From a virus, in the UHGV virus genome UHGV-1488451: a stretch of DNA of 38,329 bases, one strand, 5' to 3'. A program made the position numbers and the translations under genes. Position 1 is the first letter of the stretch; the number at the start of each line of letters is the position of its first letter. Shown piece by piece: positions 5,265 to 20,867 of this stretch. The notes under the pieces are model-generated. The model saw only the letters and a program-made list of their open reading frames with translations. It was not told the DNA's origin and ran no database searches.

Positions 5265-6749
5265 TTATTTTCCCTTCATGGTTTGGATTTGCTGTTGAAT
5301 GTTGGCGATGTCGCGCCGGGCGGCGGCGACACCATCCACGAGGGTGAGGTTTTCACCCTTCGAGTTCTGGCCCAACTGCGGCCAGGGGCCAAGCTGACCG
5401 CTGATGTATTCCACTTGTTGGATTAGTCGGTCAAGCTTTTTGTTGGTTTCCTGCGCCGCGACTTTGGCGTCGTTCAGCGCGGCGACTTGCTCATGTCCGA
5501 ATAGGGACACTGGTCCTCCTTTGATTTGGATGTTTGGGTTTGCGGGTGCGGTCGAGTAGGCGTAGCCCTTCGGCAGTATCAGCGAGGCCAGCTGGTCAAG
5601 GCTGATCCAGTAGCCGTATGGGCTGAACCATGAATCCGCTATCCACACGGCACGCCCCTGGTCACCGTCTCGATATCCCATTGCGGCAATGTAGTGGTAC
5701 ACCACGCCCCCGCCATAGGCTGGGGAGACGGAGCCGTACACGCCGCGCGGGTAGTTCGACGGTGGAGCAACGATGTTGCAGATGACACCATGACCAGCTT
5801 TGACTGAGGTTTTGATGTCGTTCCACAGGCGTTCCTGCTGGTCCGCCGTTGGTGGGTCATTAGGCATCTCTACTGACTGGTATTCAGCCCCTGGGATGTG
5901 TTTGTTCAGCACCTTCGGGAAGAACCCAATCCAGTCTGTGCCGTTGACTGTGGTGCCCAGCTCCACAGCGAAATCGCCTTCCGGCTTGAGAACACCGGTG
6001 GCGGCGAACACCACAGTCTGGGTGGATGCGGGCCCGCAATTGTAGTAGGTGTCCTGTACCACGGCCTCACGGCTGTAGGGGATTTCTACTTCTTCACCAG
6101 CCTGGTTGACCAGGGTTTCACCCGCGCCGCCGCCGGTTGAACCTTCAGGAAGCAGTGACTCCCCCAAGGTCAGGCAGAAGTCGAAGCGGCGTTGCCGGTC
6201 GTCGATTCCGTTGGTTCCTCCATTGATCGCGCGGGTTGCGGCTTTGAATCCTTCGTACCGCTGCCAGCCCTCTAGGTTCGGGTCTGCTGCCTGGTCAGCA
6301 AATTCATTGAGCAGTGGCCGAGCCACCACCCAGTACCAAGCAGCAGCCATGAATCCCCACTTCGGGGTGGCCACCAAATCCGGGTCATTCACAAACAGGT
6401 TCGGGTCGCTGGTGATTCCACGATCATGGCACCATCGACCGAACGACCCGTAGTTGTTCCGTCCCGTGAGCTGTATGGGGCCGCGACCATGGAAACGTGC
6501 ACCATCACCAGGGTAGACGTTGCCGAGATCGCCACGGCCCTCATAGTTGCTGGTGAAGTAGTCATACCCGCCAAGTTCCTGCATGAATTGCAGGCCCACG
6601 GACTCATGTCCGATCTGCGCGCACCACATTGCTGCGCGCGCCACGGTCGTGATGTCCGCGAACTTCATGGCTTCATTCATGGGTTGCACAAACGCCGAAT
6701 CGACGTTGGAACCCATTGCTCGGTTAAGTGTTCCTAGGTCCATATTCAC
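5265..6749 (-). CDS. Modular endolysin: N-terminal GH19 glycosidase domain plus central cysteine-peptidase-like domain
   Basis: GH19-like motifs FHGRGPIQLTGRNNYG and KWGFMAAAWYWV; YYNCGPAS with downstream His suggests a papain-like peptidase; likely start ATG 6743 after GAAAGGAG. Confidence 0.8.
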   Translation of the reverse strand: MNMDLGTLNRAMGSNVDSAFVQPMNEAMKFADITTVARAAMWCAQIGHESVGLQFMQELGGYDYFTSNYEGRGDLGNVYPGDGARFHGRGPIQLTGRNNYGSFGRWCHDRGITSDPNLFVNDPDLVATPKWGFMAAAWYWVVARPLLNEFADQAADPNLEGWQRYEGFKAATRAINGGTNGIDDRQRRFDFCLTLGESLLPEGSTGGGAGETLVNQAGEEVEIPYSREAVVQDTYYNCGPASTQTVVFAATGVLKPEGDFAVELGTTVNGTDWIGFFPKVLNKHIPGAEYQSVEMPNDPPTADQQERLWNDIKTSVKAGHGVICNIVAPPSNYPRGVYGSVSPAYGGGVVYHYIAAMGYRDGDQGRAVWIADSWFSPYGYWISLDQLASLILPKGYAYSTAPANPNIQIKGGPVSLFGHEQVAALNDAKVAAQETNKKLDRLIQQVEYISGQLGPWPQLGQNSKGENLTLVDGVAAARRDIANIQQQIQTMKGK

Positions 6750-11158: not shown

Positions 11159-12757
11159 CTAAGGAATCAAAGTCTTAATACGATCAGTCGCCGCCGCCAA
11201 AGTCTTCAACGACCGCTCCAACGACCGTGCCGAAGACTCACGCAAACGCGGGTCACCCAACCCAATATCAACATCATCACCACCACGACCAGGCTTAATC
11301 GTCACCGACTGAACAAACGTCGCAAAGTTCACACCACGCGAACGAAACACCGCTTGATCACCCACACGATAATCACGCCCAAACAAATACGGGGAACCGT
11401 CACCAGCCTCAAAAGCCACCGACACTTTCCCCTGCGTCTCCTGCAAAGCGGTAAACGCTTGCTGCAGCGTCGACAAGCTGAAACCCTCACCAGGCTTCAC
11501 CAAACCCCGGTACCGGTATTTACCTAGCGCGTCCTCACGTGACCACGCCCGGAACTCCGACCAAGCGAACAGTTTGTCCTTCAAAGCGTTAGCTTGCAAC
11601 GTGCCCAGGAACGCGCCACCAGCAGCAGACAACGCGGCAAACGGGGGGAACAACGCCCCAATCGCCGCGCCGATACCCTGCCACAACGCCTGCGAACCAG
11701 CCGCAATGAGACTGTTCACAATCTGCGGGGACTTGCCCCCCACGATCACGGCACTATCAGTGGCCTTGCGTAGAACAACCTTCGACGACACGCCCCGCAT
11801 GTGGTCACCATCCCACACGCACCAGGCTTTAGGGTTGTCACCATTGAATGCGGTGTCGTCGATAACAATGGCCTTTGACACATTGTCACCAGCGATTTTC
11901 TCCTTCACGCCCCTGATGACGTCGCCAACCCCGCCGGTGGACGACGCAAAGTTCCTGGCCTTCACGTCAATCACAATGGTGGGGTTCTTTAACGTGGCAT
12001 GGTTCCTGAACGGCTGCGGGTCACCGGGTAGCCAGAGTTCAGCGACCAGTTGCAGCCCGGCCGCATCCAACGTTGCTTTGAACATGTCCCCAGCAATATT
12101 GAATCGACTGTCAAGCACAGTCCATTCGGTGTTTTCCGACTCGTGCACAGGGTTCACAATCAACGGCCACCACTCAGGCCGCAGGTCACGCCATGTTGAC
12201 GCTGACCATACATCCCAGTTCTTCAGCAACTGCGGCTGAAAATCCTTAGCCAGGTTGCGGAACAGGTAGTTTTTGATAACCCTGAGCGAATCACCAGCCT
12301 GCACATCCGACCATTTCAGCTGAGCCACAATCGGCGCGCCTGGTGATGCCCACAACGGCAAGTGATTAAACAGCTCCCACAAGCCTTCACCATGCACTGT
12401 GAACACGTCACCGTCAGAATCTGAGTTGATCTCCACCTCAACGACACGGTATGCGAAACGATAGTGCTTCGTTTCAACAACCACCCAAAGGGATTCATTC
12501 AACACACGGTTCAGGTCAGGGGTGTTGGTGTCCTCATCCGCGAACATCAACGTCCGCACCGCCGGGTGAGTGCCAGGCAAATCAATCTGCATCTTGCCCG
12601 GCGCGTTGCACTCGTCGCCAAACTGCGTGCCCTCGAGAAACCCAGACAGCGACACCAAAGGCTCCATGTTCTTATCGAACAGCCACACAGTGCGGCCACC
12701 GGAATCATGCACGCTTTTCTGCGACTTGCCCCAAAGCTCCCATGCGAAAGCCACCAA
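11159..12757 (-). CDS. Minor tail protein, tail-tip (Tal-like) candidate
   Basis: 532 aa; second gene after tape measure, the position typical of tail-tip proteins in siphoviruses. Confidence 0.55.
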   Translation of the reverse strand: MVAFAWELWGKSQKSVHDSGGRTVWLFDKNMEPLVSLSGFLEGTQFGDECNAPGKMQIDLPGTHPAVRTLMFADEDTNTPDLNRVLNESLWVVVETKHYRFAYRVVEVEINSDSDGDVFTVHGEGLWELFNHLPLWASPGAPIVAQLKWSDVQAGDSLRVIKNYLFRNLAKDFQPQLLKNWDVWSASTWRDLRPEWWPLIVNPVHESENTEWTVLDSRFNIAGDMFKATLDAAGLQLVAELWLPGDPQPFRNHATLKNPTIVIDVKARNFASSTGGVGDVIRGVKEKIAGDNVSKAIVIDDTAFNGDNPKAWCVWDGDHMRGVSSKVVLRKATDSAVIVGGKSPQIVNSLIAAGSQALWQGIGAAIGALFPPFAALSAAGGAFLGTLQANALKDKLFAWSEFRAWSREDALGKYRYRGLVKPGEGFSLSTLQQAFTALQETQGKVSVAFEAGDGSPYLFGRDYRVGDQAVFRSRGVNFATFVQSVTIKPGRGGDDVDIGLGDPRLRESSARSLERSLKTLAAATDRIKTLIP

Positions 12758-12758
12758 A

Positions 12759-13550
12759 TCACCTCCACATCGACGTGAACAATGGGGTCACCATGCCGGT
12801 AGCCCCACCACCAAAAACCCACGTGGCCCTACCACCAGGGGGGATAGGCTGCGGAAACACACGCCCCCGCAACCTACGCCACAAATCCGGGGCGGGCTCA
12901 CCACCAACCGTGATCATTGAGGCTTTAGCCGGGTCAGTGTCCAACACCGCCACCCTGTTACCAGTGTGGGGCAATTCCACCTGCCCCACACCAGGGGCGG
13001 TCACCGTTGTAACCCCGTTGCCCTGCCACCTGACGCGCGGCCACAAAGGCAAATCACCAGGGTTATGAATCACAACCTCCCCAGTGTGGCGGGTAGTTTC
13101 ACCACGCCAACACCCCTCATAGCAGACAACAGGCACATCAACCGTGAACGACCGCAAACCCAACGTGGCGGGAGAAACCCCAGGGTCAGGCACACGGTCT
13201 TTCACCAACAACCTGCACGACAATGCTGTCTTACCGGGCACAACAACCCGCAAAACAGACTCATCAAACGGAGTCACATTCCGCACAAACAACCGCCACG
13301 ACTCCGCAAGCGGAGCATCCTCAGCATGGAAACCCAGTTTCAGGGTGCCCTCCATCTTGTCGATGCTCCACCCAATCGGCGTGGCACCCACCTGTGTTGT
13401 CGTTGCCCTGGTCTTCACGTCAACCTTCGCAGACAATTCAGGTGGCCCCATCAACCACATGCCCCTACGGCCATGCGCATACCGGGTGAGTGCCCACGTC
13501 ACCCCCGCACTATCGTCAAGTGAAACGTTGTACAGGGATTCCATGAACAC
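12759..13550 (-). CDS. Minor tail protein, distal tail (Dit-like) candidate
   Basis: 263 aa; immediately downstream of tape measure. Confidence 0.55.
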   Translation of the reverse strand: MFMESLYNVSLDDSAGVTWALTRYAHGRRGMWLMGPPELSAKVDVKTRATTTQVGATPIGWSIDKMEGTLKLGFHAEDAPLAESWRLFVRNVTPFDESVLRVVVPGKTALSCRLLVKDRVPDPGVSPATLGLRSFTVDVPVVCYEGCWRGETTRHTGEVVIHNPGDLPLWPRVRWQGNGVTTVTAPGVGQVELPHTGNRVAVLDTDPAKASMITVGGEPAPDLWRRLRGRVFPQPIPPGGRATWVFGGGATGMVTPLFTSMWR

Positions 13551-13560
13551 TCACTCCTTG

Positions 13561-16500
13561 CTATGTGAGAACAGTGGGCGCGCCACCAACATGACGCTCA
13601 CCCTTGATCTTTTTCAGGTCTTTGGTGTTCACCTCGACCTTGCCCTCCACAGCCTCCACACGCTGCCGCAGGACTTCCTCACCATCCACGTTCACCACCA
13701 GGGTTAGCTGACCACCATCGCCCTTATCGGCGATTTGTTTCAGCACACCCCACTGGTCGTTAGTGAGAATCGCTTCCGGCTTGCCGGACAGGTTCACCGC
13801 CGCACCCTCATGAGGCAGCACACCGCCCTGGTCATACAGGCGTGTACCACCACGGGCACGCTGACCAGCCCAACCAGCGAGGTTCACCAACCCGTGTGCC
13901 GCGTCGATGTCCTCCATCAGGCTAGCCAAACCACCAAACCCATCATCACCACCATTAAAAGCGGCACCGAGTTCACCCCACGCGGCACCAGCATCAGCGG
14001 CCTTGTTGACAAGGAACTTGGCGCGCTCCTCACCAACAACACCAGCTGTTGCGCCGTACCCGTAGTCGCCACCGTTGAAGGCGGTCGTGAACTCCTCGGC
14101 CACGTTCGCGGCCAGGCTGTTGCGCACCATGCGGCCGAAATTACCGGTGGCGTTCACCAGTGTTTTCGCGTGCGTGTCGCCGATCAGCTGGCCGAGCCCG
14201 CCGAAGCCGTCATCACCGCCGTGGAACGCTGTTGTGAGTTCTTCACGTGCAGCATCCACGGGGTTGATCTGCGGCCCTGTTGGGTTAATGTCCTGCGGGT
14301 TTTCCGGTTTTGCGTCGGCAACTGCGGCTGCGGCACCATCAACCCCGGAAGCAGCGGTGTTAGAATCGCCTGCCTGTTTGGCCTGCTCTTCTTCCTTCTT
14401 CTTCTGGTCGCGGGTGAACCAATCCGGTACAGGCGCAAGCTTGTCCGGTGGGGTTGTGGCCAGCTTCTTGATCAGGCCGTTTCCGCCGCCGATGAACTCG
14501 AAGAACGCGTCTTGTGCAAGTGCGTCCGGGGACTTGTTGCCAAGGGTTTTCCAGAACACTTCGTTGGCGATGCCAGCGCCGTAGGCCCCGGCGTCTTGCC
14601 AGCGTTTTACTTCGTTCTGGGCGTTGACGATTCCTTGGTGTGCGGCTAGTGCCGCGACTACTGCGGGGTGGTCTTCTTCGAGGTGGGTTGCGTCTGCGCC
14701 GAGGTATTCGCCGGTGTTGATGACGTGCATGAGTGCGTCTGCGGCTTGTTTCCAGGCTGCGGGGCCTTTGTTGCCGAGTTCGACGAGGGCTGGGATTGCG
14801 TTTCGGAGGTCTCCGAAGTTGCGTTCCAGCATGTCCCACTGTTCAGCGGTTAGGACAGCCTCTGGCTTTCCTGTGTGGTTCCAGTAGGTGCCGAACCCTC
14901 CTGGGGTGGGTTTGAGCCAGCCGCCGGAATCGTAGCCATGTCCATGACCCCACATTGTGGTCAAATCAGTGCCGTACCTGCTCTTGTAGTAGCGGAGCGC
15001 GGCGTTCATATTGGCCCACGGGTCACGCCTATCGTTCGGCAATTCGGGGTCACGGTTGGCTGCGAATGTGCCGGGGATGATCTGCAGCAAGCCAACGCCC
15101 GCACTGTCGCCAGTTCCGTTGACGTCGACAATCTGCTGTGCAATACCCGGGTTGCCACCAGACTCAGACTGAATCTGGGCCAGCATGGCGTTGACCTGCG
15201 CCGGGTCATCAGCATTAAAGCCTTGACGACGCATCGCGGCCATTGCCATTTCGCGCCACGACTCGGCATTACCAGCCACACCAGCGGCACCGGAGAAGGT
15301 GCCCACCTTCGACTTGATAAAGTCCCAAGCCTTGTCAGCGAGGGTTTTAGCGATAGCTCCGGGGAGCTTGCCGAAGTCGCCGTGCTGCTCCTTGCCTGGG
15401 AAGTCGCCGATCTTATTGATCGCCGCGTCCCACAGGCCCTTGACCATTGCTCCGAGGTTGAAGCCGCCACCGCCACCAGCGCCACCTGAAATGAACTCCC
15501 CAAGGAACTCCTTCAAAGTGTAGGTGTGGTTGAACAGGCTGTTATCGGAGCCACGTGCCGCACCGCCGATCTGCACGCCGTGATCGCCCGCCGATTCCAA
15601 GTTAACCCCGTCGATAGTGCCCGCCATGTGGCCGTTCTCGCCGCCGCCTTTGCCGGACAGCACGCCAATGGTCACGCGGCCAGACAAGCCGGGGACGAAC
15701 CCGAAGTTACCAAAGTTACTTTCGGTGTTGAAGATACGTCCTGCGCGCAGCGAACCGCCGTTCAGGAACTGCGTAATGCCTGACCACAGGCCCGAGCAAT
15801 CCCAGCTGGGGTTGCCGGTGCCCCCATACTGATAGGGCTTGCCGTGCTCAGATTTGAGTTCATTGAACAAGGCCGCAATGCGCTCAGTCAGGTGATCGCG
15901 CTGATCAGTGCCGCCATTAGGGAACACGCCGCCCTTAGCGAACGCAAGGGCACGGTACACGCCGCCGCGCGCGAACGCGGCACCCTCACCCAGCATCTTC
16001 TTGACGCGGCTCACGCCACCACCAATGGCGGCTTTGTTCAGCGCATCAACAGCAGGCTTACCGCCCATAGCCTTAGTGACCTCTGGGCGCATGATCGCCT
16101 CACCGCCGGACAAGCCAAGCAGCCCGCCAGTGGGGCTGTAGAAATGGTGAATATCCTTACCAGGACTGTAACCAGGCAGGACACCACCGGTTGCGAAATG
16201 ATGCTCTGGGAGTTCACCAAGGCCAACCAGCTTGGCCACCGTGTTCCAGGCTTTCCTGATGCCACCGTTGTAGACCGTGTTGACCACGAACTCAACAGGT
16301 TTTTTCGTCTTGTCCTTGATGCCGTCCCAGATGCGGCCGATATTATCGACGGTCTGACTGAACCAGTCTTTGACTTTCGTCAACCCGTCTTTCAGCCCGT
16401 TGAACACCGGGTGCACCACATTATCAGCAACCCAGCGTATGCCGTTGCCGAGGGCTTCCCACGTTGGTTTGATGTAGCCGTTCCAGATGCTGGAGAAGAA

Positions 16501-19500
16501 GTCCCCCAACGCCTGCAAACCGGCCTGCATCAGGTTCCACGTTGGTGTAACAACCGTGTCGAACACCCACTTGATGCCAGCGCCAAGACCGTTCCACACA
16601 GCCTTGATGAACTCGACCATCGGGTTAAACACATTGTTGGCCAGCCATGTGATTCCCGCGATCATTAAATCCCAGGTGGGTTTGATGATCGTGTCCCACG
16701 CGAATCGAATGGCAAGGCTCAGGCCGTCCCACTCGAATTTGATGAAACCGAAAATCGGCATGAGGACGTTGTTCCACATGAAGTTTGCCGCGCCTTGCAG
16801 CAAATCCCACGCGGGTTTAATCACGTTGTCCCAACCAGCTTTGATGCCCCATGACAGGGCTTCCCAGGCCAGCAGCAGCGGTGTCAGCACGATCGTTCCG
16901 ATCAGCGCCAGGCCAAACTTCGCCGCGTACTCCAACGCGTCCCACGCCGGTTTGATCAGCGTGTTCCACGCCCAGGCGATGCCAGCGGAAATAGCATTCC
17001 ACGTGTCACCCAGGAACTGGATACCAACACGCACAGCATCAGCCAAGTAGTTGCCCACCCATTGGATGACCACACCAACCACACTGATTAGCGGGTTGAA
17101 ACCATTGGTGATAATCCACGACAAAATGTTCGTGGCCTGCGACAAAATCCACGCTAATCCCTCAACGGCTTTCACCGCCCCAAGGATTGCGCCCACCACC
17201 ACGCCACCAACAATGATACCGATGGTTTGCAGCACCGGCATCAGCACCGGTTCAAGCAGGTTCCACAGCTGCACAAGCAGATTCCACAAGCCTTGCAGCG
17301 CACCCCACACAGCACCCGTGATCGTCTGGCCAAGACTATTCAAAGTCGTGGCCAAGGTCGTGACAGTGTTCCACAGGCTCGTGAAAGTGCCACTCAGCGA
17401 ATCCACAATTATGCCGCGAATCCACTCCATTGCATTACCGACGGTGGTGAAAGCATCAGCAATCATCTGCGCTTTGTCCGCGCCGAAAAGGGCGGTCAGC
17501 CCGCCGATGCCAGCATCATCGCCCTGGAACGCGGCGAACAGCTCACCAATGGATGCCTTCACATTCTGGAACGCAACGCCCATGCGCTCAGCAAAATCAA
17601 CAATCGCCTGGGCTTTATCAGCCCCGAAGATCGCCATGAGGCCACCAAACCCGGCGTCGCCGCCGTTGAAAGCCTCAGTGATTTCACCCCACGCGGCTTT
17701 CAGGTTGCTGAACAGAGTGAACACCGGCTGTAGGGCTTGCCCCATGAAGCTGGTGAACTCGCCCCAAATCCGCTTGCCCGTCTCGGTCTTCGTGAAGAAC
17801 AAGACCAGGGCACCAACAACGGCGGCTATGCCAGCGACAATCAAGCCTATGGGGTTGATCAGCATGGCTGTGTTCAAGCCCATTTGTGCGGCCGTGGCCT
17901 GCAAAGTGCCCGCGCGCTGCGCCGCAAGCAGGGCAGGCAAAACTTTCATCTGCGCTGCAAACGAACTAATCGCAGACACCGCAAACAAACCAGCCTGCGC
18001 CGCCCGCAAAGCAGCCATGCCAGCAACAACACCACCAACAGCGCCGCCAATAACAACCAGCAAATCCTTATTGCGGCCCAGCCACTCAGCCACAGCAGGA
18101 AGCTGATTAGTCAACGCGCCAATGGAGTTCCCCAGACGATCACCCCACGCCGAAAGCGTAGGCTCAGCCAAGGCGTACAGCTGCAGCTGCAAATCATCAA
18201 TCGCGTTTCCGATACGGTCCATCACACCATTCAGGCCAGCGAGCTTAGCCCCCGCAGTTTCACCAGCGGAGCCTTGCCGGTCGAGAGAAGCACGCAGCTT
18301 ATCAAACCCCTCGACACCACTGTTCGCCGCAGTAGTCGCAAACGATACAGCCTCACGCCCAAACGCGGTTGCAGCAGCGGCGGTAAACGCACTCTCACCC
18401 ATGCGGTCCTGCGCGGCCGCCAGCTGCGCGGTGATTTCCCGCATACCCACGAACTTGCCTTGCGCATCGAACGCATTGACACCCATCTCAGCAAGCGCCT
18501 TAGCGCCTTCTTTTGACGGGTTAGTAAGCGACAGCAACGCCGAACGCATCGCCGTACCAGCCTCGGAACCCTTGATGCCAAGGTTGGCGAACAAGCCAAG
18601 ATACGTACTCGCATCCTGCAAAGACACACCCAGAGTGGAGGCAATAGGTGCCGTGTACTTGATGGAGTCGCCTAGCTCAGTCAAGCCTGTAGCACTGTTA
18701 TTAGCGGTGTTAGTCAACACGTCAGCAACAAGTGACGCATCCTTAGCCGCCAGGTGGAAACCATTCAACGCCGCGATCTGAATATCAGCAGCAGTGCCAG
18801 CATCAACCTGAGCAGCACCCGCAAGCTGAATGGAACCCTTTGCCGCGTCCATAGCATCAGACACCGACAAACCACCCTTAGCCAACGCCAGCATCGCATC
18901 AGTAGCAGATGCGGCACTAGTGCCAGCCAGGGTTTCATCGTTGCCAAGGTCGCGGGCACGCTGCGACACCATCTTCATAGTGTCCCCAGTCGAACCCGTC
19001 ACAGCCTGCAACGACCCCATCACCTGCGACAGCTCACGGCCTTTACCAATGGCATCACCAAAAAACGCGGCACCACCAGCAACACCAAGACCACCAGCAA
19101 TAACCCCACCAAGACGACCAACCGTCCCCACAAGGGAACTAATCTTCCCGCCCACACTATCCACATCACCAGAAAGGCTCAGCGCCCAAGCCTTCGACTT
19201 CTCAGCCGCGCCAGTGAACGTGAAACCAGTCTTCTTAACCTGGTCCCCAACATGCCCAGCAGCCTCAGCAGCCTTACGCTGCGACGCTGCGGCGTCCTCC
19301 ATTGTGGCCTTGTACAGTTTCTCCTTGGCGCTCACCTGGTCGTTGGCGTTCGCTAAATCAACCTTAGCTTTCTTAAGCTCCCCCTCCGACTTCACCAAAG
19401 CAAGTGACGCACGGTCAGACTGGCGTTTAGCAGTCTCTAGCTCACGCTCCGCGCGCTGAACCTCCTTCGAGTCAGCGTCATTAGCGTTACGCGCGTCCTG

Positions 19501-20076
19501 AAGTTTCTTCTCCGCAGCCGCGACTTTCTCATTAGCTGCGGCGACTTTATCCCGCTGCTCCCCCACAGCAAGATCAGCGGCCTTTACCTTCCCCGATGCC
19601 TCAGCTGCGGCAATACGAGCCTTCCCAAGGTTATCCTCAGTACGTGCCACCTGAGCCGCGGTTGCGACGCCGCCCTCACGAATAGCCTTAAGGTCAGTCT
19701 CACCACGTGCGACCTGGGCGGTAGCCTGATCAAGCTTGGCTTTGGCCACTGCCGCATCAGACTCCGCGCGCGCCACCTGCGACGCCGTGGCCGTGCTGCT
19801 GTTACGCGCCTGCTGCAGTCGCTCCTCAGCCACCGCAACATCCTGCGCCGCCTGCGCCTCAGCCTTACGGGCCGCAGCAACCACGCGGGTTTGCTTCTCG
19901 ACGCCCTCAGCCAGCGCGGCACCGGCGTTCTGGCCGGACTTCTCAAAGCTCTTCTCGATCAGGGCGCCAGCATCATCAGCAGCCTTCGACGCGCCCTTCA
20001 CCACCTCAGCGGCGAAACCACGCATCGAAGCATTAACCGGAACCCACACAGTAGACGCCACCGCGCCACACTCCAA
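13561..20076 (-). CDS. Tail tape measure protein with embedded NlpC/P60-like peptidase and SLT-like lytic transglycosylase domains
   Basis: 2171 aa; N-terminal coiled coil, Gly/Ala TM-like stretches, W-rich periodic repeats, motif WDCSGLW (about 15784-15804) and QSESGG...GVGLLQIIPGTF (about 15071-15099). Confidence 0.9.
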   Translation of the reverse strand: MECGAVASTVWVPVNASMRGFAAEVVKGASKAADDAGALIEKSFEKSGQNAGAALAEGVEKQTRVVAAARKAEAQAAQDVAVAEERLQQARNSSTATASQVARAESDAAVAKAKLDQATAQVARGETDLKAIREGGVATAAQVARTEDNLGKARIAAAEASGKVKAADLAVGEQRDKVAAANEKVAAAEKKLQDARNANDADSKEVQRAERELETAKRQSDRASLALVKSEGELKKAKVDLANANDQVSAKEKLYKATMEDAAASQRKAAEAAGHVGDQVKKTGFTFTGAAEKSKAWALSLSGDVDSVGGKISSLVGTVGRLGGVIAGGLGVAGGAAFFGDAIGKGRELSQVMGSLQAVTGSTGDTMKMVSQRARDLGNDETLAGTSAASATDAMLALAKGGLSVSDAMDAAKGSIQLAGAAQVDAGTAADIQIAALNGFHLAAKDASLVADVLTNTANNSATGLTELGDSIKYTAPIASTLGVSLQDASTYLGLFANLGIKGSEAGTAMRSALLSLTNPSKEGAKALAEMGVNAFDAQGKFVGMREITAQLAAAQDRMGESAFTAAAATAFGREAVSFATTAANSGVEGFDKLRASLDRQGSAGETAGAKLAGLNGVMDRIGNAIDDLQLQLYALAEPTLSAWGDRLGNSIGALTNQLPAVAEWLGRNKDLLVVIGGAVGGVVAGMAALRAAQAGLFAVSAISSFAAQMKVLPALLAAQRAGTLQATAAQMGLNTAMLINPIGLIVAGIAAVVGALVLFFTKTETGKRIWGEFTSFMGQALQPVFTLFSNLKAAWGEITEAFNGGDAGFGGLMAIFGADKAQAIVDFAERMGVAFQNVKASIGELFAAFQGDDAGIGGLTALFGADKAQMIADAFTTVGNAMEWIRGIIVDSLSGTFTSLWNTVTTLATTLNSLGQTITGAVWGALQGLWNLLVQLWNLLEPVLMPVLQTIGIIVGGVVVGAILGAVKAVEGLAWILSQATNILSWIITNGFNPLISVVGVVIQWVGNYLADAVRVGIQFLGDTWNAISAGIAWAWNTLIKPAWDALEYAAKFGLALIGTIVLTPLLLAWEALSWGIKAGWDNVIKPAWDLLQGAANFMWNNVLMPIFGFIKFEWDGLSLAIRFAWDTIIKPTWDLMIAGITWLANNVFNPMVEFIKAVWNGLGAGIKWVFDTVVTPTWNLMQAGLQALGDFFSSIWNGYIKPTWEALGNGIRWVADNVVHPVFNGLKDGLTKVKDWFSQTVDNIGRIWDGIKDKTKKPVEFVVNTVYNGGIRKAWNTVAKLVGLGELPEHHFATGGVLPGYSPGKDIHHFYSPTGGLLGLSGGEAIMRPEVTKAMGGKPAVDALNKAAIGGGVSRVKKMLGEGAAFARGGVYRALAFAKGGVFPNGGTDQRDHLTERIAALFNELKSEHGKPYQYGGTGNPSWDCSGLWSGITQFLNGGSLRAGRIFNTESNFGNFGFVPGLSGRVTIGVLSGKGGGENGHMAGTIDGVNLESAGDHGVQIGGAARGSDNSLFNHTYTLKEFLGEFISGGAGGGGGFNLGAMVKGLWDAAINKIGDFPGKEQHGDFGKLPGAIAKTLADKAWDFIKSKVGTFSGAAGVAGNAESWREMAMAAMRRQGFNADDPAQVNAMLAQIQSESGGNPGIAQQIVDVNGTGDSAGVGLLQIIPGTFAANRDPELPNDRRDPWANMNAALRYYKSRYGTDLTTMWGHGHGYDSGGWLKPTPGGFGTYWNHTGKPEAVLTAEQWDMLERNFGDLRNAIPALVELGNKGPAAWKQAADALMHVINTGEYLGADATHLEEDHPAVVAALAAHQGIVNAQNEVKRWQDAGAYGAGIANEVFWKTLGNKSPDALAQDAFFEFIGGGNGLIKKLATTPPDKLAPVPDWFTRDQKKKEEEQAKQAGDSNTAASGVDGAAAAVADAKPENPQDINPTGPQINPVDAAREELTTAFHGGDDGFGGLGQLIGDTHAKTLVNATGNFGRMVRNSLAANVAEEFTTAFNGGDYGYGATAGVVGEERAKFLVNKAADAGAAWGELGAAFNGGDDGFGGLASLMEDIDAAHGLVNLAGWAGQRARGGTRLYDQGGVLPHEGAAVNLSGKPEAILTNDQWGVLKQIADKGDGGQLTLVVNVDGEEVLRQRVEAVEGKVEVNTKDLKKIKGERHVGGAPTVLT

Positions 20077-20867
20077 TCAGATTTCAAGACTCTTCAAATA
20101 CGCAAGTGCCTCCTCCTGGGTGTGATCACCCAGGGAACCAATGCGTGAAGAATTAGCGTTCTTAATCTCCGACCACGGATAGGCAGGTGTTTCTTCGGCC
20201 GGCATTTTTGCTTTGCTGTTTCCGTTCACGCGGGCCAGCAAAACCTGTGTTTCCCACGTCGCCCACAACAGCCGCCACAACAGGGAGTCGGTAATGCCGT
20301 AGGGCTTGCCGTCGGTTTGATGCCAACGCGCCGGGGAATCCTTAGGCAGGTTCTCAACAAGGACGCGGAGTTTCCGCAAGGTGATCTCACCCCGCCAGAA
20401 CTCCGCCATAACATCCCTGTGGTACGCCTGCTCTAGTGACGCTTCGAGGACTTCCGCGCCACCGCACGACGCTGCAAGCGATTCAACGGTGAAGATTTTC
20501 CCTCACTGTTGACAGCCTCCATAGCTTTGCGATGCTCAGCGAACACCAAGCCCCACAGAGACGACGAGCCACCAGCCTCGAGGAACCGGTCGTACTCTTC
20601 CTCACCCATGAACCAGGCACACAAATCAGGCCCGTACTCTGGCAGGTCATTCAGCTCATCCAACTGGGCATCATTCAGGAACATCGGGTCAGCGAAAGTA
20701 AAGGTTTCACCCTTGAATGTGAAGGCGATACGGTCACCCTCAATGCCGGTGGCTTCCTTCCGCTGAGCGATCAAAGTATCCAAATCATAGGACATGGCAG
20801 ACCCCTTCCAAAGTCTCACAAGCAGGCCAAACAACAAAAGGTTGGTGGGGGCGGGCCTGCCAAACAC
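20077..20867 (-). CDS. Tail assembly chaperone GT-type fusion product made by programmed -1 frameshift at 20496-20502
   Basis: Zero frame ends ...NSEGKSSPLNRLQRRAVARKSSKRH at 20433; the -1 frame opens right after a TGA exactly at heptamer G_GGA_AAA and runs to the tape measure start. Confidence 0.6.
20433..20867 (-). CDS. Tail assembly chaperone (G-like, zero-frame product)
   Basis: 144-aa acidic protein immediately upstream of tape measure. Confidence 0.7.
   Translation of the reverse strand: MFGRPAPTNLLLFGLLVRLWKGSAMSYDLDTLIAQRKEATGIEGDRIAFTFKGETFTFADPMFLNDAQLDELNDLPEYGPDLCAWFMGEEEYDRFLEAGGSSSLWGLVFAEHRKAMEAVNSEGKSSPLNRLQRRAVARKSSKRH
20496..20502 (-). promoter_or_regulatory. Slippery heptamer GGGAAAA (X_XXY_YYZ) for -1 ribosomal frameshifting
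   Basis: Plus strand reads ttttccc; on minus strand the zero-frame codons are gaG GGA AAA. Confidence 0.6.

Follow-up and report, generated by a model that had tools for sequence, protein, structure and literature searches.

A long tape measure protein from a probable oral Corynebacterium siphophage, with two putative wall-cutting domains and a rare 44-residue repeat

Introduction

The virus genome UHGV-1488451, a stretch of 38,329 nt that is referred to here in its entirety as the window, contains one open reading frame (ORF) that is longer than any other it encodes. A sequence-only reading of this DNA had proposed that the ORF, located on the minus strand at positions 13561–20076, specifies a very long tape measure protein (TMP) with two embedded cell-wall hydrolase domains, a recurrent AFxGGD motif and a tryptophan-rich repeat region. 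The locus raises the question of what such a protein would do in addition to measuring a tail, and of which of its parts are new. The results presented below argue that the ORF very probably encodes the TMP of a temperate siphophage of oral Corynebacterium, which would function as a ruler, as an ejected conduit and as a local cutter of the cell wall. The sole undescribed element of the protein is a repeat of about 44 residues.

The gene and its product

The ORF is intact and is open throughout, with 2171 codons counted from a TTG at position 20076, immediately after the stop codon of the upstream gene, and zero internal stops. An alternative start, the GTG at position 20061 (codon 6), has GGAG upstream and gives a product of 2166 amino acids (aa), the same length as the near-identical proteins in the databases; the N-terminus of one relative, P0005, is the residue equivalent to that start. 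The IMG/NCBI annotation begins at an ATG at codon 18 and gives 2154 aa. We regard GTG 20061 as the likely translation start, with a predicted product of 2166 aa. Residues are numbered from the TTG throughout, and numbers based on the GTG are obtained by subtracting 5.

A cluster of 2166-aa proteins with 98% identity has 122 members, mostly encoded on contigs of approximately 38 kb; one member, DAV83672.1 (98% identity), is labelled 'MAG TPA: minor tail protein [Caudoviricetes sp.]'. This cluster bears on the possibility that the 6.5-kb ORF is an artefact of assembly or annotation, in which a shorter TMP gene has become fused to separate tail-lysin genes. The window is a metagenome-derived contig, and gp15 of phage BFK20 is annotated as two putative products, both of which favour that explanation. 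Near-identical proteins of 2144–2166 aa are, however, found on many independent contigs, the same collinear architecture is present in C. durum isolates and in the cultured phages BFK20, phi673 and phi674, and there is no stop inside the ORF, so that we consider a fusion artefact extremely improbable. Antisense ORFs of 219–351 aa within the TMP gene, in this G+C-rich DNA, gave no family matches and were rejected as spurious.

Identification as a tape measure protein

The protein matched TIGR01760 (tape_meas_TP901) with 165.8 bits (cut-off 28.8), over positions 3–347 of the 349 in that profile, and PF10145 with 144.4 bits (E value 5e–42; cut-off 33.2). In the PHROG search the best matches were nearly all TMP families, and the core of the protein could be aligned to a solved TMP chain, 9g8s_w, with an E value of 4e–27. 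The gene is the longest of the tail module and lies between the frameshifted chaperone genes and the distal tail and hub genes; the gene order obtained by PHROG assignment of the neighbours (major tail protein, chaperone, frameshift extension, TMP, Dit-like, Tal-like) is the canonical one. These profile matches and the gene context uphold the identification proposed earlier, and the protein is assigned to the TP901 family of TMPs.

The closest isolate-derived relative is the TMP of a C. durum prophage (79% identity), and the best matches among cultured phages are to the Corynebacterium phages CL31, phi674, phi673 and BFK20. A megablast search of INPHARED found no close phage genome, just short TMP fragments. 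The source is a temperate siphophage, most likely with a host in the oral Corynebacterium of the C. durum group.

It is also conceivable that the protein derives from a TMP but acts as an effector of a contractile injection system (CIS) or a tailocin, rather than as a phage tail ruler. TMP-related CIS effectors are reported for actinobacteria (PMC13277306), and the diffocin hub contains an NlpC/P60 hydrolase (8v3w_H). The window nevertheless encodes a siphophage-type major tail protein, a frameshifted G/G-T pair, Dit/Tal-like proteins, an endolysin and an integrase; its upstream ORFs are sized like terminase, portal and capsid genes, and no tail sheath protein was found among the ten neighbouring ORFs that were scanned. 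An injection-system effector is therefore given next to no credence, and the protein is treated below as a siphophage TMP.

The NlpC/P60-type domain

An NlpC/P60-like peptidase had been proposed from the motif WDCSGLW, which does indeed occupy positions 15784–15804 (aa 1425–1431). The homologous segment from the query and 15 relatives was aligned. In these 16 sequences, which are 35–91% identical to the query, the residues of the putative catalytic triad, Cys1427 (codon at 15796–15798), His1483 (15628–15630) and Glu1494 (15595–15597), are invariant. When the single sequence was compared with the PDB the matches were weak, with 16–23% identity to solved enzymes, yet all were to NlpC/P60 proteins. 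The 16-sequence profile matched solved NlpC/P60 enzymes with E values of 2e–8 to 1e–3, among them C. difficile autolysin 7cfl (2e–8), the diffocin hub hydrolase, an 'Endolysin A', LytE, SagA and others, and it matched the TMP chain 8zdo_S of phage Douge with an E value of 2.7e–12. PF00877 recognized 12 of the 16 homologous segments at E < 0.01. The sequence thus contains the Cys-His-polar triad of the NlpC/P60 family (MEROPS C40, PF00877), and a papain-like α+β fold, with the Cys on the N-terminal helix and the His on a β sheet, is seen in an AlphaFold2 (AF2) model of the domain (predicted local distance difference test score (pLDDT) 80). The His-to-Glu spacing of 11 resembles that in RipA (Cys383-His432-Glu444).

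The family profile and the invariant triad bear out what had been deduced from WDCSGLW alone, and they support the assignment of residues 1385–1545 as an NlpC/P60-type peptidase domain, a putative cleaver of stem peptides. A tblastn search detected the domain in 218 phage records, in which it is annotated as part of TMPs in Corynebacterium, Rhodococcus, Gordonia, Streptomyces and Mycobacterium phages and as lysin A in mycobacteriophages. BFVD matches were to the TMPs of Corynebacterium phages P1201 and Juicebox and of Gordonia phages Suzy and Volt, with E values of 1e–5 to 4e–9. A domain of this kind, which falls below the Pfam threshold but is recovered by a family profile, means that automatic annotation under-reports the lytic content of these TMPs.

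A group of relatives of 2330–2420 aa, P0006–P0014, is collinear with the TMP as far as residue 1386, with 51% identity. At that point approximately 110 unrelated residues replace the NlpC/P60 domain, and collinearity returns at the SLT region. Judged from these alignments, the group provides a clean case of module swapping inside a TMP.

The SLT-type domain

An SLT-like transglycosylase motif had been placed at positions 15071–15099. These encode GVGLLQIIPG (aa 1660–1669), within which GLLQ, a GLMQ-type motif, occupies residues 1662–1665. PF01464 matched the whole protein with 27.0 bits and the excised segment with 31–32 bits (maximum 32.3), the gathering score being 21.3, and it matched 16 of 16 homologous segments of the family, with a best E value of 8.8e–14. 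The putative catalytic residue, Glu1638 (codon at 15163–15165), is found in the sequence QSESGGNP. Across 16 sequences sharing 30–80% identity with the query, the E-S of QSE1638S does not vary, and the Q of GLLQ and the aromatic positions of ALRYY show little or no variation. In a single-sequence search of the PDB phi29 gp13 was the sole match, its QSES being aligned with the E-S, although weakly (E value 0.3).

The sequence therefore contains the catalytic E-S followed by GLMQ-like and aromatic motifs, in a segment scoring above the gathering score, and the curated Pfam model and conserved motifs support the assignment of residues 1600–1716 as an SLT domain, a putative cleaver of glycan strands. 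As regards the domain searches that had been suggested as a check on both hydrolase predictions, the SLT domain is found directly by Pfam and the NlpC/P60 domain by its family profile, the single sequence being below threshold.

The 44-residue AFxGGDxGxG unit

The AFxGGD motif had been said to recur at least five times, in two clusters. Five copies were found, at residues 802, 849, 1950, 1999 and 2039, in clusters of two and three. Three are exact to the earlier pattern and two are degenerate (AFQGDDAGIGGL and AFNGGDYGYGAT), and a profile of the surrounding unit scored all five at 49–67 bits, so that each is a real copy. Four of the five also constitute a DNA repeat family with 61–79% identity over 56 nt, the upper value being that between the first and last copies. 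The consensus of the unit, which is approximately 44 aa long, is AWGELxAAFxGGDxGYGALxxLxGxxxAxxxVN. Its strictly conserved parts are the Glu, the Ala-Phe and the Gly-Gly-Asp-x-Gly-x-Gly loop.

It had been left open whether the motif is restricted to this phage. Profile searches found the unit in other TMP-like proteins, and it was present in 30 of 121 scanned sequences (the query and 120 relatives). A search of 1.84 billion 50%-identity representatives yielded 98 proteins at E ≤ 0.001, 67 of which are at least 1000 aa long and have other TMP parts or a TMP_3 match; the rest look like fragments. Nearly all of the full-length carriers are TMP-like, with lengths of 1200–2440 aa, and the named carriers are from Corynebacterium. 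A scan with a degenerate DNA pattern, of one genome per species, gave seven loci, three of which are real (two in Corynebacterium and one in a metagenome-assembled genome of Propionibacteriales).

The units are spaced 39–50 residues apart, and their preferred places are at approximately 30–40% and 80–100% of the protein length, that is, directly after the membrane hairpin and directly before the C-terminal plug, with one to eight tandem copies. The copy number among the relatives ranged from 0 to 8, and as many as eight tandem units were observed in a C. aquilae prophage protein.

No relatives of the unit were found in Pfam, NCBIfam or the PDB, the profile giving nothing credible against the last of these. 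AF2 modelling of two units gave a pLDDT of 65 and a predicted template modelling score (pTM) of 0.45, which is too poor for a fold search, and secondary structure alone was therefore used; each unit is predicted to consist of a helix, a Gly-Asp loop, a short helix and a long helix. A helix-hairpin-helix (HhH) reading of the unit was considered, given a faint match to the NCBIfam ComEA HhH model (E value 0.013; 15.6 bits, the cut-off being 53), but it is unsupported: a Pfam scan of 22 two-unit segments returned no HhH families. In that scan DUF7512 gave weak matches in 5 of the 22 segments (best E value 2e–4), and other families each matched no more than three.

Such strict conservation would not be expected in a mere ruler segment. 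The unit can be suggested, tentatively and with considerable doubt, to be an undescribed TMP-specific module that does more than act as a neutral length spacer. It might serve as a hinge or hairpin needed in packing or ejection, provide a loop that binds metal or the wall, or be the place where a chaperone docks. The unit is in any case a rare, uncatalogued TMP repeat, a candidate for a family model, and a handle for relating copy number to tail length.

The W-rich repeats

The central W-rich region, described earlier as periodic, proved to have a 45-residue period. Residues 890–1290 (401 residues) contain 29 Trp, compared with 24 in the other 1770 (binomial P 6e–13). The periodicity of W was significant at lag 45 (z 7.5) and lag 90 (z 5.0), values that were reached in 0 of 2000 shuffles in either case, and lags 26 and 71 were also enriched. 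Lag 11 was not enriched, either for W or for W plus F. The period corresponds to five tandem copies with 18–42% pairwise identity, a spacing of 135 nt in the DNA and the consensus W[DNE]xLxxxI[KR]xxWDx[VI][IV]KPxWDxL...; they are common to BFK20 gp15. Tandem Repeats Finder, applied to the DNA, found short low-complexity arrays and no 135-nt repeats.

Belcaid et al. (2011) described TMP tandem repeats marked by Trp or Phe, with a period of 11 or 11-11-18 residues (PMC3271669). The present repeats are like those in having conserved Trp at fixed positions, in being tandem and in lying centrally in the TMP, but their period of 45 sets them apart from the 11-residue W/F repeat. They form a W-marked tandem array within a TMP, built from units of another length.

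Length of the protein and of the tail

The protein had been taken to imply an unusually long tail. This holds in comparison with lambda, but for its clade the length is normal: the TMPs of its relatives measure 1948–2443 aa and that of corynephage CL31 2276 aa, so that TMPs of more than 2000 aa are normal in corynephages. Longer TMPs are found in Gordonia phage PokyPuppy (3370 aa) and Rhodococcus phage Reynauld (3192 aa). In phage Douge a 1699-aa TMP accompanies a 269.6-nm tube, i.e. 0.159 nm per residue (PMC13033339), and in TM4 the deletion of a 114-aa lytic motif shortened the tail by approximately 20 nm (PMC1796659). At 0.15–0.16 nm per residue, a tail of about 325–345 nm would be predicted here. 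The length of the CL31 tail is not stated in PMC8002715.

Proposed mechanism

Tail length, ejection, processing and enzymatic activity are considered here for this phage by analogy with the systems cited. In the ruler function, extended copies of the TMP, held by the G/G-T chaperones, would fill the lumen of the tail tube and set the length of the tail, with the C-terminus anchored in the Dit/Tal hub. The C-terminal tail is presumed to act as a plug in that hub because residues 1658–1699 of the Douge TMP occupy the DTP-BHP lumen (PMC13033339). As a conduit, the TMP would be driven out in front of the DNA once the hub has opened on the host cell, and its four hydrophobic segments may insert into the envelope. 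The Douge study, in which the C-terminal 42 residues of the TMP are plugged in the hub, includes the proposal by its authors that the expelled TMP is a trans-envelope channel (PMC13033339). Wall cutting would involve the NlpC/P60 domain (Cys1427-His1483-Glu1494) acting on peptide stems and the SLT domain (Glu1638) acting on glycan strands, with a hole through the peptidoglycan as the outcome. On the model of TM4, non-growing cells are where this would matter most: motif 3 of the TM4 TMP hydrolyses peptidoglycan and improves the infection of stationary-phase cells (PMC1796659). The 45-residue W repeats and the 44-residue units may be helical modules that supply length and whose copies come and go through duplication.

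Several results weigh against this scheme. PF00877 gave the single sequence 16.6 bits, against a cut-off of 23, and covered only profile positions 1–21, around the Cys; the best Foldseek match of the NlpC/P60 model to the PDB had an E value of just 2.5e–2; and a PDB search with the SLT family profile returned nothing at E ≤ 0.01. The close relatives P0006–P0014 lack the NlpC/P60 domain, so that a TMP can perform its basic function in the absence of this domain. Finally, the part ascribed to the 44-residue unit has as its basis the low-confidence secondary structure of the AF2 model.

Some of these results would be accounted for if the hydrolase-like domains were catalytically dead, serving as length, spacer or wall-binding modules in a ruler without enzymatic function. 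The divergence of the NlpC/P60 domain and the otherwise collinear architecture of P0006–P0014 are compatible with that possibility, as is the finding that motif 3 of TM4 is not required for viability (PMC1796659). It does not agree with the invariance of the Cys, His and Glu in the NlpC/P60 alignment or with that of the E-S in the SLT alignment; moreover, mycobacteriophage lysin A enzymes make use of this peptidase domain, and TM4 motif 3 has hydrolase activity (PMC1796659). We consider inactive domains improbable, and favour the TMP as a ruler and conduit that would also cut the wall.

Features of the locus

The features of the TMP gene and of the adjacent tail genes are collected in Table 1.

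Table 1. Coordinates of the TMP gene, its parts and neighbouring tail genes in the window
Feature	Position	Strand	Basis or remark
TMP gene	13561..20076	-	Longest ORF from TTG 20076; likely start GTG 20061
N-terminal Ala/Lys/Glu-rich coiled-coil region, aa ~30–300	19177..19989	-	Composition
TP901-family core, aa ~334–683	18028..19077	-	TIGR01760, PF10145, 9g8s_w
Hydrophobic hairpin, aa 672–690 and 743–761, then FFTKTETGKR	17794..18063	-	Kyte-Doolittle 19-residue means 2.3 and 2.8
AFxGGDxGxG units 1–2, aa 791–884, ~44–47 aa apiece	17425..17706	-	Motif, unit profile
Third hydrophobic segment, aa 952–970	17167..17223	-	Hydrophobicity
Five tandem 45-residue W-rich repeats, aa 1026–1250	16327..17001	-	Periodicity; 135-nt DNA spacing
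Gly-rich linker motif copy 1, FATGGVLPGY...LSGGEAIMRPE, aa 1291–1332	16081..16206	-	Kept in BFK20
NlpC/P60-type cysteine peptidase domain, aa 1385–1545	15442..15924	-	Putative triad Cys1427/His1483/Glu1494
SLT-type lytic transglycosylase domain, aa 1600–1716	14929..15279	-	PF01464; putative catalytic Glu1638
Linker motif copy 2, YDSGGWLKP...GKPEAVLTAEQW, aa 1713–1747	14836..14940	-	Start corresponds to BFK20 gp15a/gp15b boundary
Variable, partly low-complexity segment, aa 1748–1937	14266..14835	-	~120 aa shorter in P0002
AFxGGDxGxG units 3–5, aa 1938–2073	13858..14265	-	Motif, unit profile, DNA repeat
C-terminal region, aa 2079–2171, including linker copy 3 (YDQGGVLPH...GKPEAILTNDQW) and tail	13564..13842	-	Conserved among relatives
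Tail assembly chaperone pair (G and G-T extension)	20077..20867	-	PHROG chaperone matches split over one profile; slippery site
Downstream minor tail genes: Dit-like (12759–13550), Tal-like (11159–12757)	11159..13550	-	phrog_106 and phrog_110

The N-terminal coiled coil, which is variable between relatives, matched SMC coiled coils only weakly and through low-complexity sequence. The hairpin and the FFTKTETGKR that follows it are kept in BFK20 gp15 and are present in 43 of the 67 long carriers of the 44-aa unit. A fourth hydrophobic segment (aa 1056–1074) lies within the first W repeat. No family match was found in Pfam for the variable segment.

The linker motif, [FY][AD]xGG[VW]LP...G[KE]PEA[VI][LM][TR]..QW, occurs three times, before the NlpC/P60 domain (16081–16206), after the SLT domain (14836–14940) and near the C-terminus (aa 2079–2109; 13750–13842), all on the minus strand. 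Half-copies, FARGGVY and FAKGGVFPNGG, are present at residues 1368–1390. The recurring motif may represent proteolytic processing sites or former C-termini. A short tandem array of GCCACCACC at 15463–15486 on the minus strand encodes a poly-Gly stretch, SGGAGGGGGF, that links the NlpC/P60 domain to the next helix, and the length of this linker differs among relatives.

On the plus strand, the interval 14001–15000 has a GC skew of +0.05 and an AT skew of –0.30, the signs being flipped in comparison with the rest of the gene (GC skew about –0.1 to –0.26, AT skew 0 to +0.2). The interval comprises the end of the SLT domain, the variable segment and part of the C-terminal unit cluster. The flip is consistent with a mosaic origin of the variable segment.

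Upstream of the TMP gene, the ORFs 20433–20867 and 20077–20409 correspond to the N- and C-terminal halves, respectively, of a single PHROG profile, phrog_8183. A slippery heptamer of the canonical –1 kind, G GGA AAA, lies at 20496–20502 on the minus strand, in the zero frame and close to the end of the first of these ORFs, and the post-shift frame reads GKIFTVESL... into the second. From its sequence and position, the site is expected to be that of a G/G-T programmed frameshift. The endolysin gene (5265–6749, minus strand) encodes a 494-aa product with two domains, its N- and C-terminal halves being matched separately by PHROG endolysin families. With the two domains of the TMP, the phage therefore has at least four predicted wall-degrading domains.

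Comparison with known systems

By comparison with database proteins, the arrangement described here is one that is already known: BFK20, phi673/674 and many actinophage TMPs have the same domains. BFK20 gp15 is 43% identical to the TMP over residues 967–1737, the TMPs of phi673 and phi674 being likewise related, and it has in the same order the W repeats, the GGVLPGY...GGEAIMRPE linker, the NlpC/P60 domain, the SLT domain and a GG-x-L-P motif; a transmembrane hairpin with FFTKTETG is also present. It differs in its length (1604 aa), in its N-terminal half, which is approximately 24% identical, and in that the AFxGGDxGxG unit was not seen at the aligned position. It is annotated as processed to gp15a and gp15b, at a boundary (Tyr1298/His1299) that corresponds to Tyr1715/Asp1716 here. 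Its lytic transglycosylase domain is the subject of Papayova 2025, as cited in PMC13232314.

The TMPs of C. durum prophages (P0002, P0235 and P0236; also P0003) have the same NlpC/P60 and SLT domains. P0002 and P0003 are 79% and 59% identical, respectively, over approximately 77–81% of the length, with AFxGGD units in the same two places. The number of units is four in P0002, two in P0003 and six in P0004, compared with five here, and P0002 has a shorter segment separating its SLT domain from its C-terminal units (Table 1). CL31 Clg58 is 39–46% identical over much of its length, and this TMP was detected in virions by mass spectrometry (PMC8002715). Its counterpart, P0018, lacks the WDCSG motif and matches the NlpC/P60 segment no more than marginally, and no AFxGGD units were detected in it. 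It is apparent from such comparisons that the presence of the NlpC/P60 domain and the number of units vary among relatives, and the TMP gene is, on this evidence, a mosaic.

TM4 gp17, together with 'motifs 1–3' of Pedulla/Hatfull, illustrates the same principle, i.e. host-like peptidoglycan-hydrolase modules inside a long actinophage TMP. TM4 gp17 has one such motif (mt3, related to Rv0320/Rv1728c), whereas the NlpC/P60 and SLT domains are predicted to occur in tandem here. The Douge TMP, gp16 (PDB 8zdo/8zdq), has a homologous NlpC/P60-like segment at residues 1284–1435; residues 1658–1699 alone are resolved, i.e. the enzyme domain lies outside the experimental structure. In relation to these systems, the protein described in this report adds little that is new beyond one more actinophage TMP with predicted wall-cutting domains of its own, in a phage of human oral Corynebacterium, and its NlpC/P60 and SLT domains are candidate enzybiotic parts for use against corynebacteria.

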